A stretch of 43,142 bases of DNA, taken from Candidatus Heimdallarchaeota archaeon (lineage in GTDB: Archaea; Asgardarchaeota; Heimdallarchaeia; Heimdallarchaeales; Heimdallarchaeaceae). Positions 5,142-11,940 of the stretch are shown here, piece after piece. Position numbers and translations under genes: made by a program. The DNA is taken from assembly GCA_019057815.1 (NCBI GenBank), contig JAHLWR010000029.1:1-43142 (forward strand). Reading direction: 5' to 3'. Every line of letters starts with the position of its first letter. Position 1 is the first letter of the stretch. The notes beneath the pieces are model-generated. The model was not told the DNA's origin and did not search any database. It saw only the letters and a program-made list of their open reading frames with translations.

Positions 5142-6707
5142 TTGTGGAGCAACAATTTTAAAAGACTAGTTCCAGTTATACTGACATTGAATAACGTAGA
5201 ACATTATAAAGAATCTATCTCTTTTGTAGAAACCCCTAAGCTTATTGCAAGATTAATGGTTAATTTAATTAGTAGTAAAATAATAATGAAGAGGGAAGCA
5301 TTAATTCTAGATTCTGGATGTGGAAAAGGGGTTTTTTTAGAAGAATTGTTGCAAGCAAGCTATACAAATGTCGAAGGAATAGAAATCGATTCTTCACTTT
5401 GTGAAACGTGTAAAACGAAATTTAGAGAGTTTAAAATTCATAATAAAGATTATTTAGATTGGAATTATGATAAAAAATTCGATGTTATCATTGGAAACCC
5501 TCCCTATTCGCACTACAATTCTTTACCTATCAATATTAGGGAGAAGGTTTTTACTCTCTCAAAAAACCGTGAATCTGACATTTATTACGCTTTCATTATT
5601 AAATCTATCAACCTCTTGAAAGAAGATGGAGAACTAATCTACATAGTTCCCTATAGCTTTTTCTACAATACTTTTGCTAGATGTGTTAGAGAGAAAATTA
5701 TCACTAATGGGTATTTTGAACTAGTTATTGACCTCGATGAAGTGCGCTTATTTGAAGGAGAAAAACCTGAAACGATTATTTTTAAGTTTAGAAAAAGTAA
5801 ATTGAAACCAAGTGATAACACACTCTATTTACAATTAAAGAGGAAGAAAGCTAGTATTAGTCAAATATTCTCACTAGTTAATGTCGCACTTAAAAAGCAA
5901 GAAAGTAATGAGATTTTTCACTATCATAAGAAAAAAATGTTCGCTTCAGCTGACGACGTATGGACAACACACCCAGAAATAAGAATTCCAAAATCAAAAC
6001 CTTTACATGAGTTAGCTTTTGTTGGTGTAGGTTTAGTCTCAGGATATGAAAAAGCCTTTCAAATAAAAGAAGAAGAGATAAAGCAGCTAAATTTTAACGA
6101 AAAATCAATTATCAAATCATTTGTCAAGGCCAAACACTGCAAAGGATATTGGACTGAAGGTGAAACAAAATATTTCATTATAGATGACAAAATCACAGAA
6201 GAAAGTTATGTAGAAGATTCTTTTCCTTATTTTTATGATAAAATAAAAAAATTCAAAGAAGATATGAAGAAGAGATACCTCCCCAAAAGCAAAAGCTGGT
6301 TCCATTGGCAAGCTTTACGCAATATAAAAAAACATGATCTATATTCTGAAAAACCAAAAATCTTTGTACCAACTCTTGATCGTAGTTTAACAAACCGATT
6401 CAGTCTTACTTCTAAACGAGTATATCCCTCTGGAGATGTTTTAACAATTGTTCCTATAGATGTTAATCCTTTCTTTTTATTAGGTTACTTAAACAGCGAT
6501 TTTTTCAGAAAATACTTTTTTTCACACGGTGCGAGAAGAGGTCACAGAATGGCATTTACTCAAAGGGTGATGTCCAATATTAAGATCCCACTATTTGAAA
6601 AAAAAGTGTCCTCTAGAATTGCATCTATTGCTAAAGAAATCTACATCAAAAAGAATCTGAAACATAAAGACGAATTAAATATATTGATTAGTAGAGTTCT
6701 AGAGTAG
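5142..6707 (+). CDS. DNA N6-adenine methyltransferase, gamma class (TaqI/Eco57I-like); start codon uncertain
   Basis: Motif X (ETP), motif I LDSGCGKG, motif IV IGNPPY, YIVP, C-terminal TRD with FLLGYLNS. Confidence 0.88.
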   Translation: MWSNNFKRLVPVILTLNNVEHYKESISFVETPKLIARLMVNLISSKIIMKREALILDSGCGKGVFLEELLQASYTNVEGIEIDSSLCETCKTKFREFKIHNKDYLDWNYDKKFDVIIGNPPYSHYNSLPINIREKVFTLSKNRESDIYYAFIIKSINLLKEDGELIYIVPYSFFYNTFARCVREKIITNGYFELVIDLDEVRLFEGEKPETIIFKFRKSKLKPSDNTLYLQLKRKKASISQIFSLVNVALKKQESNEIFHYHKKKMFASADDVWTTHPEIRIPKSKPLHELAFVGVGLVSGYEKAFQIKEEEIKQLNFNEKSIIKSFVKAKHCKGYWTEGETKYFIIDDKITEESYVEDSFPYFYDKIKKFKEDMKKRYLPKSKSWFHWQALRNIKKHDLYSEKPKIFVPTLDRSLTNRFSLTSKRVYPSGDVLTIVPIDVNPFFLLGYLNSDFFRKYFFSHGARRGHRMAFTQRVMSNIKIPLFEKKVSSRIASIAKEIYIKKNLKHKDELNILISRVLE

Positions 6708-9120: not shown

Positions 9121-9480
9121 TTGTATTGTTTCTATAAAAGAGGAAAAATAATGCTACTACTATATAAAGATAAGATTTTAAAAGAGTTAATTGAAAAATA
9201 TACTAAGCGCGACAAATCGCTTGAATCAATTGTTCTTTATGGTTCAGTAGCAAGGGATGATTATACAGCTAATAGTGATATAGATATATTACTAATTACA
9301 CTGGATATTCAACATACAAAAGAGATATTTTCGCAATTCAGATCTGAGTTGTATTCAACTACAGGAATAACTATTACAGCTATTTATTCTAACTATCAGA
9401 ACTTTCTTACAAGCATTGAACCTCTGTATAACAATATAAGAAAAGAAGGTAAAACACTATGGAAAAGAAAGAGGATTTAG
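9121..9480 (+). CDS. Minimal nucleotidyltransferase (MNT); more likely start ATG 9151
   Basis: YGSVAR...SDIDI (GS-x10-DxD) motif; overlaps the HEPN gene. Confidence 0.88.
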   Translation: MYCFYKRGKIMLLLYKDKILKELIEKYTKRDKSLESIVLYGSVARDDYTANSDIDILLITLDIQHTKEIFSQFRSELYSTTGITITAIYSNYQNFLTSIEPLYNNIRKEGKTLWKRKRI

Positions 9481-9869
9481 AAAAAATTGTTAAGCAATTA
9501 ATTATCCGAAGCGAAGATAAGCTAGATTCTGCACAAATATTACTAAAAGAAGAAAAATACGATGATTCTATAAGCAGAGCATATTATGCTGCATTTCTAG
9601 CTGTAAGAGGACTATTATTACTACTAGGAGATTCACCTAGATCCCATAGTGGACTGATAACGATGTTTGGTTTAAAAGTAATAAAACAAGGATTACTTTC
9701 CAGAGAGATTGGAAAGGCTTTGAATGAATTATTTGAAGCTAGACAAACAAGTGATTACTCAATATTTGTTTATTACTCAAAGGATGACTGTCTAAAATAT
9801 ATCGAAAATTCAAGAAAAATAACAGACGAAATTAAAACAATTATGGCTGTAAAATTTGGTATTGAATAA
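9459..9869 (+). CDS. HEPN domain protein (UPF0332/COG1895 type)
   Basis: ISRAYYAAF, RSHSG and RQTSDY motifs. Confidence 0.9.
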   Translation: MEKKEDLEKIVKQLIIRSEDKLDSAQILLKEEKYDDSISRAYYAAFLAVRGLLLLLGDSPRSHSGLITMFGLKVIKQGLLSREIGKALNELFEARQTSDYSIFVYYSKDDCLKYIENSRKITDEIKTIMAVKFGIE

Positions 9870-9969: not shown

Positions 9970-11940
9970 GTGATTCTAATGTCCAAAGAAGAAATTAAAA
10001 ATTTGGAAGAATTAATTCTTTACCACAAAAGAAAGTATTATGATGGAGAAACAGAAATCTCTGATGCTGAATTTGATAGTCTAGAAGAGAGATTAAGAAT
10101 ACTTGATGCAAACAATCCCGTACTATTTATTGTTGGTACGAAAGAGGGAGAGGATAAGGGAAAGGTAAAACATGACCCTCCAATGCTTTCCTGTCAAAAA
10201 GCTAAAACCGTTGAAGAAGTTCTCAAGTGGTCAAATGATAAGCCAATAACAATAGGTTACAAAGTCGATGGTTTATCTCTTAAGCTTGTTTATAATAATT
10301 CAAGACTTATTGTTGCTTCTACAAGAGGAAGTGGTTTACAGGGTGATGATGTCACGATCAATATCTTACGAATAGAATCTATTCCTAAAACTATTCCCTT
10401 TGATAATAGAATAGAAGTAAGGGGAGAACTCTATATGGAAATCTCAGAATTTAATAGAATAAATAAAGATTTACTTGAAATTGAAAAATATAGTAATCCG
10501 CGAAATCTAGCAGCTGGAACGATAAAACAAAAAGATTCTAAAATAGTTAACGAGAGAAAATTAAAATTTGAAGCATGGGATCTTTTAGGATACGGGCGTG
10601 ATACTAGTGTTGATGAACAAGCTAAAATTCTATCTTCATGGGGTTTTGATTCTTCTTATTTCCACACAATAGAAGAACCAGATTATGAGTCTATTTCTAA
10701 ACCTTTTAAAAAAGTTGAAGAAGAGCGTGAAAGACTAGATTTCGAAATAGACGGTGTTGTTTTTAAATATAATTTGGCTAATCACAGAGAAGAAGCGGGA
10801 GAAACTGATCATCATCCTCGATGGCAGATAGCCTTGAAATTTGAAAGTAAAGGGAAGACTACAACCTTGAAAGATATTACTTGGCAAGTTGGAAGAACAG
10901 CTGTTTTGACACCTGTAGCTGAATTAGAACCTGTTAAAATCGCTGGAGCTGTTATCAGTAGGGCTACTCTTCACAATGCAGAGTTTCTTCTTTCATTAGA
11001 TGCTAATCAAGGTGATATTGTTTATGTAGAAAGGTCAGGTGAAGTGATACCCAAAATAATCAAAGTTACATCTAAAAATACTGATTTAAAAGTACAACTC
11101 CCAAAGAAATGCCCTTCTTGCGGAGCTGAAACGAGACGAATAGGAGTTAATCTTGTTTGTACGGGAGATAACTGTAGAGAAAAAGAAATACAACAAATAA
11201 AATATTGGATAAAAATAACTAAAATTGACGGTTTGGGAGGTAAAAGCTTAGAGAAATTATATGATTTAGGATTATTGAAACATTACAGTGATCTTTATAG
11301 TCTAACAGAAGAACAACTTGTAGAACATTTAGGTAAGAATGGTTCAAAAATCTACCAATCTATCAATAGTACGCGTGAGTTACCTTTCCACATCTTTCTA
11401 GCTGGTCTAGGAATCGAAACACTTGGAAGAACCATGGGAAAGAAATTAGTCAAGCACTTTACAAGTTTAGAAGAACTGAAAAATGCTTCAATTAATCATT
11501 TAACAGAATTAGAGGGAATATCAGATATTACTGCCAAGCACATCAACAAAGGTATTAATGAAGAAGAAAGGTATGAAAATCTCTTTAAAAGGGGATTGAT
11601 AATTATCCCTCCAAAAACTTTACCTAAGAAGAAAAGACCAGCAACAGGAGCAAAGGATCTTACAAGTTTCTTTGGAAAAGCAGATCAAGAAGAAGATGAA
11701 GAATTTGTCGAAATGCAAAGAATTTACATTACTGGAAAAGTAGAAGGTTATATCAAAAACCAGCTTGAACAATTAGCTGAAGATCACGGATTCGAGTGGG
11801 TATCATCAGTGAGTAAAAGACTTGACATGCTTGTTTATGGCGAGAATGCGGGCAAATTAAAGTTAGAAAAAGCTGAAAAACTTGGAGTTAAAACTATACC
11901 TTGGGAAAAGTTTTACAAAGAATATATTAACAAAAAATAA
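9970..11940 (+). CDS. ligA: NAD-dependent DNA ligase
   Basis: Domain Ia YY..ISDAEFD, adenylation motif KVDG, STRGSG, EVRGE, NPRN, DGVV, QVGRT, ATLHN, Cys4 zinc finger (CPSC..C..C), HhH region, C-terminal BRCT. Confidence 0.96.
   Translation: MILMSKEEIKNLEELILYHKRKYYDGETEISDAEFDSLEERLRILDANNPVLFIVGTKEGEDKGKVKHDPPMLSCQKAKTVEEVLKWSNDKPITIGYKVDGLSLKLVYNNSRLIVASTRGSGLQGDDVTINILRIESIPKTIPFDNRIEVRGELYMEISEFNRINKDLLEIEKYSNPRNLAAGTIKQKDSKIVNERKLKFEAWDLLGYGRDTSVDEQAKILSSWGFDSSYFHTIEEPDYESISKPFKKVEEERERLDFEIDGVVFKYNLANHREEAGETDHHPRWQIALKFESKGKTTTLKDITWQVGRTAVLTPVAELEPVKIAGAVISRATLHNAEFLLSLDANQGDIVYVERSGEVIPKIIKVTSKNTDLKVQLPKKCPSCGAETRRIGVNLVCTGDNCREKEIQQIKYWIKITKIDGLGGKSLEKLYDLGLLKHYSDLYSLTEEQLVEHLGKNGSKIYQSINSTRELPFHIFLAGLGIETLGRTMGKKLVKHFTSLEELKNASINHLTELEGISDITAKHINKGINEEERYENLFKRGLIIIPPKTLPKKKRPATGAKDLTSFFGKADQEEDEEFVEMQRIYITGKVEGYIKNQLEQLAEDHGFEWVSSVSKRLDMLVYGENAGKLKLEKAEKLGVKTIPWEKFYKEYINKK

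Follow-up and report, generated by a model that had tools for sequence, protein, structure and literature searches.

The question that this locus raises is how a DNA ligase of bacterial type could be coupled to the replication machinery of an archaeon. The stretch of DNA analysed here (the window, 43,142 nucleotides) is positions 1 to 43,142 of contig JAHLWR010000029.1 of Candidatus Heimdallarchaeota archaeon (GenBank assembly GCA_019057815.1), and it carries a gene for an NAD+-dependent DNA ligase, LigA. Between the helix-hairpin-helix (HhH) region and the BRCT domain of this enzyme lies a linker insert with the octamer AKDLTSFF, and an earlier note on this DNA had suggested that the octamer resembles a PCNA-interacting peptide (PIP) box and that a horizontally acquired ligase had been retrofitted to the host sliding clamp. 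We think it probable that the insert represents an internal PIP box lacking the Gln, a short linear motif on a disordered tether, through which LigA would be attached to PCNA.

The PIP-like motif and its conservation

The frame across the motif region reads ...IIIPPKTLPKKKRPATGAKDLTSFFGKADQEEDEEFVEMQRIYITGK..., and the linker between the HhH region and the BRCT domain has the sequence KTLPKKKRPATG-AKDLTSFF-GKADQEEDEEF. We identify this stretch as the linker from the Pfam matches on either side of it (HhH at residues 476-527 and BRCT at residues 584-643), and the earlier note had located AKDLTSFF exactly, at 11650-11673 between these domains in the frame at 9970-11940. The canonical PIP box is Q-x-x-[LIMV]-x-x-[FYW]-[FYW]. 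L564 falls at position 4 and F567 and F568 at positions 7 and 8, and the basic patch KTLPKKKR stands upstream, in agreement with the description of the octamer as a PIP consensus in all but the Gln. Position 1 is Ala561, and the motif is therefore PIP-like, or non-canonical, and not a canonical PIP box.

The only segment of LigA with predicted local distance difference test (pLDDT) values below 50 in an AlphaFold2 (AF2) model is residues 551-580, which suggests that the linker is probably disordered and that the motif lies midway along a tether that joins two folded domains. Together with the positively charged flank KTLPKKKR, this context agrees with a broader definition of PCNA-binding motifs; among 77 verified examples 34% have no Gln and most lie in disordered regions, and positive flanking charge tunes their affinity over four orders of magnitude (PMC6881253). 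Direct reading of residues 549-583 gave no match to the second PCNA-binding pattern considered, the AlkB homologue 2 PCNA-interacting motif ([KR]-[FYW]-[LIVA]-[LIVA]-[KR]), and with no fitting pentapeptide there this candidate was rejected.

Comparison of the 39 full-length Asgard LigAs placed in a phylogenetic tree shows that they form one clade (support of 100 in the Shimodaira-Hasegawa approximate likelihood ratio test), separated by a long branch from the nearest bacterial LigAs. A long linker of 33-46 residues is present in 22 of the 39, across the Heimdall, Hod, Kari and Hermod groups, and in all 22 a basic patch is followed by L-x-x-[FYW]-[FLI], in versions such as GQKDLASYLG, GLDAWFG, GLDQFLP, NLLDFIG and QLEAFFS. 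The Leu column is invariant (22/22), [FYW] is found at +3 and [LIF] at +4 in every sequence, and G follows at +5 in 12; these next two key columns have entropies of 1.0 and 1.5 bits, as against about 3 bits in the flanks. Upstream, at positions -13 to -2, Lys or Arg occurs in as many as 17 of the 22 at one position and Asp and Glu are nearly absent, while acidic residues are dominant in the downstream flank.

In a larger collection, made non-redundant at 90%, the motif was found in 49 of the 50 proteins with a linker of at least 30 residues. The exception is P0010, a metagenome protein (41% identical) with a 66-residue Pro/Lys-rich linker, in which RQGTLDVLVG has the spacing of a PIP box but no aromatic residues. 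The linker of an Odinarchaeota LigA in the same collection carries the fully canonical QKTLLDYI, and a LigA from a relative in the same genus as the host reads AKDLVSFFG. The prediction that (Q)xxLxxFF would be conserved within an otherwise variable linker of Asgard homologues is thus borne out in both sets.

Three of the sequences have irregularities of their own. In a second assembly of the same genus (G001), ligA is split between two contigs (C110 and C229; L004 and L026) exactly at the linker, and an inverted partial BRCT copy at the contig end is probably an assembly artefact. P0155 (783 aa, from a Joint Genome Institute metagenome) is an Asgard-type LigA with a duplicated C-terminal BRCT module, in which a second ...IYVTGK...BRCT unit follows after a spacer of ~70 residues; its linker motif, PLTQFL, is present. 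In the Thorarchaeota LigA L062 the tblastn match covers 2118 nt for 644 query residues and the continuous open reading frame (ORF) begins 230 nt later, which could reflect a frameshift or an N-terminal insertion.

LigA of E. coli (2owo) aligns end to end with the Heimdallarchaeota enzyme, except that residues 549-575 of the latter face gaps. Among bacteria, the 35 nearest LigAs, drawn from contigs of one genome per species, belong to the Gemmatimonadota, Bacteroidota, Spirochaetota and Candidate Phyla Radiation and are only 29-33% identical; their linkers are 14-22 residues long and are without the motif. The statement in the earlier note that bacterial LigA lacks PIP boxes holds for PIP boxes as such, although it has to be qualified in that some bacterial LigAs, Spirochaetota included, end in QxxLF-like C-terminal tails of the β-clamp type. 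Examples of such tails (L097, L107; P0061, P0074, P0084, P0017) are ...NNQLLLF, ...EEQPSLF, ...GQKTLF, ...TQSSLF, ...TQLDLFKYK and ...QTKLFQ, and these putative clamp-binding ends are the mirror image of the PIP-like tails of some Asgard LigAs described below.

The host clamp and its predicted clients

The host metagenome-assembled genome (MAG; 3.74 Mb in 48 contigs, 95% complete) encodes one PCNA, with a very acidic C-terminal tail, ...EESEVIDDYDDYESN. No match to the β clamp, DnaN (PF00712), was found in this 95%-complete genome, and 10 of 14 control genomes were matched in the same way. Also encoded are Fen1, RNase HII, family B polymerases and an ATP-dependent ligase of 597 aa; both ligases are therefore present in the host, and the LigA motif is intact. 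Fen1 ends in ...LRQKRLDAFFG and RNase HII in ...SQAKKLDGYFH, the latter likewise without Gln at position 1, and of the PolB proteins one ends in ...IKALDKWFK and another in ...SQKTLDFILRK. In 38 relatives the C-terminus of Fen1 reads Q-x-x-L-[DES]-x-[FYW]-F, often with G after it.

We used the PIP octamers of the relatives' Fen1 proteins to build a position-specific scoring matrix (PSSM), and AKDLTSFF scored highest of the 649 octamers of LigA, at 7.5 bits versus 1.6 for the next. Because the matrix is set for FF at positions 7 and 8, Hod-type F-[LI] variants score poorly, and it is unusable as a general detector. The host proteome (3125 ORFs of at least 100 aa, 1.08 million residues) was also scanned for a pattern of at least five Lys or Arg and at most three hydrophobic residues in the 15 residues through PIP positions 1-3, followed by L-x-x-[FYW]-F. 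Twelve sites were found. Five are within 10 residues of a C-terminus, in Fen1, RNase HII, the RFC large subunit (which ends in ...KKKKPSQASLEKFFN), PolD DP2 and a 338-aa protein; the LigA site is the sixth, and six others are internal. The DP2 large subunit has a Gln-less PIP-like ...SVKLSDFF, with 10 more residues to its end. Judged by these occurrences, the scan pattern is rare in the host proteome and would mostly mark PCNA clients.

Two of the proteins recovered by the scan have further features. PolD DP2 (1495 aa; L205, G000 contig C23:29458-33942, minus strand) carries an intein with a LAGLIDADG domain. The 338-aa protein (L206, G000 contig C42:6582-7595, plus strand) belongs to no Pfam family and ends in ...QTLLESFF (full tail ...RKRGFKATPLSKQTLLESFF); a basic patch precedes this canonical PIP box, and the protein is a candidate for an uncharacterised PCNA client.

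That a low-complexity linker should resemble a PIP box by chance is very unlikely. The loose pattern [LIM]xx[FYW][FLIYW] does turn up in ~7% of trials with shuffled linkers, but a coincidence of this kind does not account for the motif in 22/22 and 49/50 long-linker LigAs, for the top PSSM window of 649, or for a pattern with 12 sites per 1.08 million residues. Counting the rate in shuffled linkers, the rank in the PSSM, the proteome scan, the conservation in all 22 orthologues and the absence of the insert from bacteria, the AKDLTSFF observation is confirmed as real, beyond chance, on five counts.

We give almost no credence to a second possibility, that the octamer is a relic of a β-clamp-binding motif brought along from the bacterial donor. 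The clamp-binding site of Helicobacter pylori LigA, 554-QEFIRSLF-561, does lie near the BRCT domain (PMC4976356), and there are the bacterial LigAs that end in QxxLF. Nevertheless, no DnaN was found in the host genome, the nearest bacterial LigAs are without the insert, and the L-x-x-F-F spacing is that of a PIP box and not of QL[SD]LF. Direct reading of the linker gave no match to QL[SD]LF or QxxL(x)F, and together with the lack of a PF00712 match in the host this led us to reject the candidate. The proposal that an acquired ligase was retrofitted to the host clamp is, at the level of sequence, supported by the presence of PCNA without DnaN, the lack of the insert in bacterial LigAs, and the likeness of the motif to the PIP boxes of the host.

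Relocation, loss and the ATP-dependent ligase

In several Asgard LigAs the linker is short and motif-less, and a PIP-like motif is found instead on a C-terminal tail that extends past BRCT; the extreme C-terminus is the usual position of PIP boxes in archaea. The tails are ...AKKKGLNEFFS in L072/P0002, ...PQSARLTDYFEK (ending ARLTDYFEK) in L074, ...KKKKSSTLDNFFT in P0016, a cluster mate of which is named Promethearchaeota, and ...HASFEDYFYE in P0217. N-terminal PIP-like extensions were looked for on the motif-less LigAs and none were found. A motif that would function from either the linker or the tail is as expected of a docking motif for a partner in trans. A LigA that, like P0010, was left unassigned to a taxon, P0033 (L187:6001-8004), has a clamp-like tail, ...AQATLDRFG, with the longer form ...GGRAQATLDRFG.

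These tails bear on the idea that the insert is an auxiliary DNA-binding element or a flexible spacer, with its Lys/Arg patch lying on DNA, its hydrophobic residues incidental or nick-sensing, and no protein partner. We regard this as quite unlikely. Such a role would suit the strong basic patch that comes immediately behind the HhH DNA-binding region, and also the tolerance of very different linker lengths, but it leaves unexplained why, in an otherwise variable and charged linker, one Leu never varies and two further positions at the spacing of a PIP box are hydrophobic or aromatic, why the same motif recurs on the tails of LigAs without the long linker, and why an acidic run follows downstream.

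On the tree of 39 Asgard LigAs, motif-bearing members are found in every major subclade with motif-less ones nested among them, and the linker inserts are homologous in position and composition. A decayed remnant, KKQDLSRFQ, can be recognised in one LigA of genus g3. The tree itself does not polarise these changes; most economically they are read as a single early gain in the Asgard LigA clade and repeated loss afterwards. The insert is not peculiar to the host genome and looks to be ancestral to the whole clade.

LigA and the adenylation domain of ATP-dependent ligases (PF01068) were sought in the 83 genomes of the class. LigA is present in 47 of them. No ATP-ligase domain was found in 11 of the LigA-bearing genomes (68-93% complete), and five more have only a divergent form, with PF01068 scores of 120-130 bits. 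The PIP-like motif is present in 10 of the 11 LigA-only genomes (nine in the linker and one on the tail), and all 14 of the motif-less LigAs that were checked, 10 from genus g3 and four from the Thor clade, are found beside a canonical ATP-dependent ligase. Incompleteness of the MAGs weakens the raw LigA-only counts, and we therefore rely on absences that are coherent within clades: all five members of one LigA subclade (L052, L053, L056, L063 and L064; support 100), and four genera of family f3, are without a canonical ATP-dependent ligase. The co-occurrence fits relaxed selection on the tether where a PCNA-coupled Lig1 is present. The divergent ATP-dependent ligase, with ORFs of 641-666 aa, occurs in G032, G038, G052, G060, G061 and G067, which are without a canonical Lig1 of 570-620 aa.

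It is improbable, albeit worth more attention than the explanations above, that the motif docks a partner other than PCNA, either a different replication or repair hub or the adenylation or BRCT domain of LigA itself, in the latter case regulating opening and closing of the enzyme. Conservation shows selection on a hydrophobic motif without naming its partner, PIP-like motifs are promiscuous (PMC6881253), and the canonical Gln is missing in most copies. Against this, the motif follows the PIP boxes of Fen1, RFC-L and RNase HII of the same lineage in its spacing, its trailing Gly and its basic flank, it is kept where no ATP-dependent ligase was found, and it has relocated to the extreme C-terminus in several lineages. 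For docking within LigA in particular, the AF2 monomer leaves the linker undocked on the LigA domains, with pLDDT below 50.

Several observations also weigh against the reading of the insert as a PIP box for PCNA. Position 1 lacks Gln both in this LigA and in 20 of the 22 aligned linker motifs. The motif also has an internal position, in contrast to the recognised PIP boxes of the Heimdallarchaeota genome, which are C-terminal. The scan pattern alone is no proof, because six of its 12 sites are internal ones in unrelated proteins. Well-supported branches of the tree force at least five motif changes, counted as losses, and LigA as such can therefore do without the motif. In one of the LigA-only genomes (G034, 84% complete) no motif could be recognised. 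For any given gene, a share of about 14% is expected to be missing from these MAGs, corresponding to ~6 of the 47 genomes, and the co-occurrence is a pattern rather than a test, since related genomes are not independent.

If the insert is a PIP box, the hydrophobic pocket that PCNA has beneath its interdomain connecting loop would receive L564, F567 and F568, and the upstream Lys/Arg patch may add electrostatic affinity, for example to the acidic C-terminal tail of PCNA or to DNA. The flexible linker would let the ligase ring close on a nick while still tethered. LigA could in this way stay on the archaeal clamp where Okazaki-fragment processing or repair synthesis has left a nick, in the manner of the host's Fen1, RNase HII, RFC-L, PolB and PolD, which would use their C-terminal PIP boxes for the purpose. 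The motif may have a single origin, at an early point of the Asgard LigA clade, once the bacterial-type ligase had been acquired. It would have been kept where LigA appears to be the sole or main ligase, moved to the C-terminal tail in a few lineages, and decayed or been deleted in those that also keep a canonical ATP-dependent ligase.

A bolder proposal is that in several lineages of the Heimdallarchaeia LigA has displaced the eukaryote-like, ATP-dependent Lig1 as the PCNA-coupled replicative (Okazaki-fragment) ligase by means of this peptide, with the tether decaying where Lig1 was kept; we hold this only tentatively and think it somewhat more likely to be wrong than right. Heimdallarchaeia are the archaea generally placed closest to eukaryotes, and core replication proteins, which work inside complexes, are for that reason considered resistant to lateral replacement. 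Here a bacterial-type ligase has apparently been fitted into a PCNA-centred, eukaryote-like replisome by the gain of about eight linker residues, and for some Asgard lineages it may by now be the sole ligase. This offers a clean, testable case of a short linear motif integrating a foreign enzyme into a host machine, and a natural experimental series is provided by LigAs that retain the motif, have it at the C-terminus instead, or show it decayed or deleted. NAD+-dependent ligation at Asgard replication forks would tie DNA joining to the supply of NAD+. In the literature on NAD+-dependent ligases of archaea, Asgard archaea among them, and PCNA, we found no description of a PIP-like motif on such a ligase. 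If PCNA is indeed the partner, a familiar docking motif is here carried by an additional family, the NAD+-dependent ligases, and LigA joins the list of PCNA clients.

Gene layout and comparison with known systems

The ligA gene is intact. The whole protein matches TIGR00575 at 518.7 bits in a profile search, against an equivalog cut-off of 444.45, and NF005932 at 493.9, against a cut-off of 369. Its frame opens with GTG at 9970, although the likely start is the ATG at 9979, which gives a protein of 653 aa; the identical collection protein, P0154, begins there too. Domain Ia, which confers NAD+ specificity on LigA, is present at the N-terminus (PF22745, Nlig-Ia, matched on P0154). LigA has Y18-H19, D32 and D36; position 35 is F here and Y in most orthologues. 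The assignment of these residues as NAD+ contacts follows E. coli LigA. K98, D100 and G101 of the KxDG motif are invariant across an alignment of 33 Asgard LigAs. The AF2 model, made from a 33-sequence alignment, has a mean pLDDT of 85.6 and shows helices at 403-540 and a short strand at 544-546 in the HhH region. The features are listed in Table 1.

Table 1. Position of ligA, its domains and the elements of the linker insert in the window; amino acid (aa) numbers are those of LigA.
Feature	Coordinates	Strand	Details
LigA ORF, NAD+-dependent DNA ligase	9970..11940	+	One open frame, 656 codons
Adenylation (nucleotidyltransferase) domain	10162..10848	+	aa 65-293; PF01653, 8.8e-57; KxDG lysine in K98-V-D-G
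OB-fold domain	10858..11079	+	aa 297-370; PF03120, 2.1e-28
Cys4 zinc finger	11110..11175	+	aa 381-402; C381, C384, C397 and C402 invariant in 33 Asgard LigAs
HhH DNA-binding region	11176..11607	+	aa ~403-546; PF12826 and PF14520 over 476-527
Linker insert, HhH to BRCT	11614..11718	+	aa 549-583, ~35 residues; probably disordered
Basic patch KTLPKKKR	11614..11637	+	aa 549-556, upstream of motif
PIP-like motif AKDLTSFF and G569	11650..11676	+	AKDLTSFF aa 561-568 (11650-11673); L564 at position 4, F567/F568 at positions 7/8
Acidic run DQEEDEEF	11683..11706	+	aa 572-579, downstream of motif; direct reading
BRCT domain	11719..11898	+	aa 584-643; PF00533, 5.6e-05, above its cut-off; folded at 583-653 in the AF2 model

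Directly 5' of ligA, at window positions 9121-9869 on the plus strand, are genes for an MNT nucleotidyltransferase and a HEPN protein whose ends overlap, an arrangement like that of a toxin-antitoxin pair. An N6-adenine methyltransferase of the Eco57I/TaqI type lies at window positions 5142-6707.

ATP-dependent ligases that bind PCNA through a PIP motif include human LIG1 and yeast Cdc9, in which it is N-terminal, Saccharolobus solfataricus Lig1, and the Pyrococcus furiosus ligase, with QKSFF (PMC1865074, PMC6881253). The Asgard LigAs share with these enzymes a short hydrophobic or aromatic peptide that is flanked by basic residues and lies in a flexible part of the protein, and a presumed role in sealing Okazaki-fragment nicks. 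They differ in that the Asgard enzyme is the unrelated NAD+-dependent LigA, in the absence of the Gln, and in the position of the motif, which is in the HhH-BRCT linker or on the C-terminal tail rather than N-terminal or in the DNA-binding domain. PIP boxes without Gln are known from human Pol kappa (KHTLDIFF) and RNase H2B (MKSIDTFF). The LigA motif resembles them in its hydrophobic position 4, its aromatic residues at 7 and 8, the residue other than Gln at position 1, disorder and positive flanks, although motifs of the Pol kappa and RNase H2B type are experimentally verified and that of the Asgard LigAs is predicted from conservation alone.

A laterally acquired ligase is also found in Haloferax volcanii, where the bacterial-type NAD+-dependent ligase LigN is redundant with the ATP-dependent enzyme, there named LigA (PMC7776575, PMC1684257). 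As in the Asgard case, an acquired NAD+ ligase shares an essential function with the native ATP-dependent ligase or can replace it, although LigN is a separate acquisition. The paper on the biochemistry of LigN makes no mention of PCNA, PIP or a sliding clamp, and the LigN passages of an H. volcanii review are silent on PCNA.

Bacterial LigA itself binds the β clamp, as in E. coli and in the H. pylori enzyme discussed above, and the parallel is that the same enzyme family would in Asgard archaea also be coupled to the host clamp by a short peptide near the BRCT domain. However, the predicted partner is PCNA and not DnaN, the motif is of another class, and it lies in an insert that is absent from bacterial LigAs. 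We note finally the parallel to EndoMS/NucS, which has a C-terminal PIP motif in archaea and a β-clamp motif in Actinobacteria (PMC8228993). There an archaeal enzyme passed into bacteria and the motif is at the C-terminus rather than in a linker, but it provides a precedent for one enzyme family carrying a clamp peptide matched to the domain of life in which it resides after transfer between domains.

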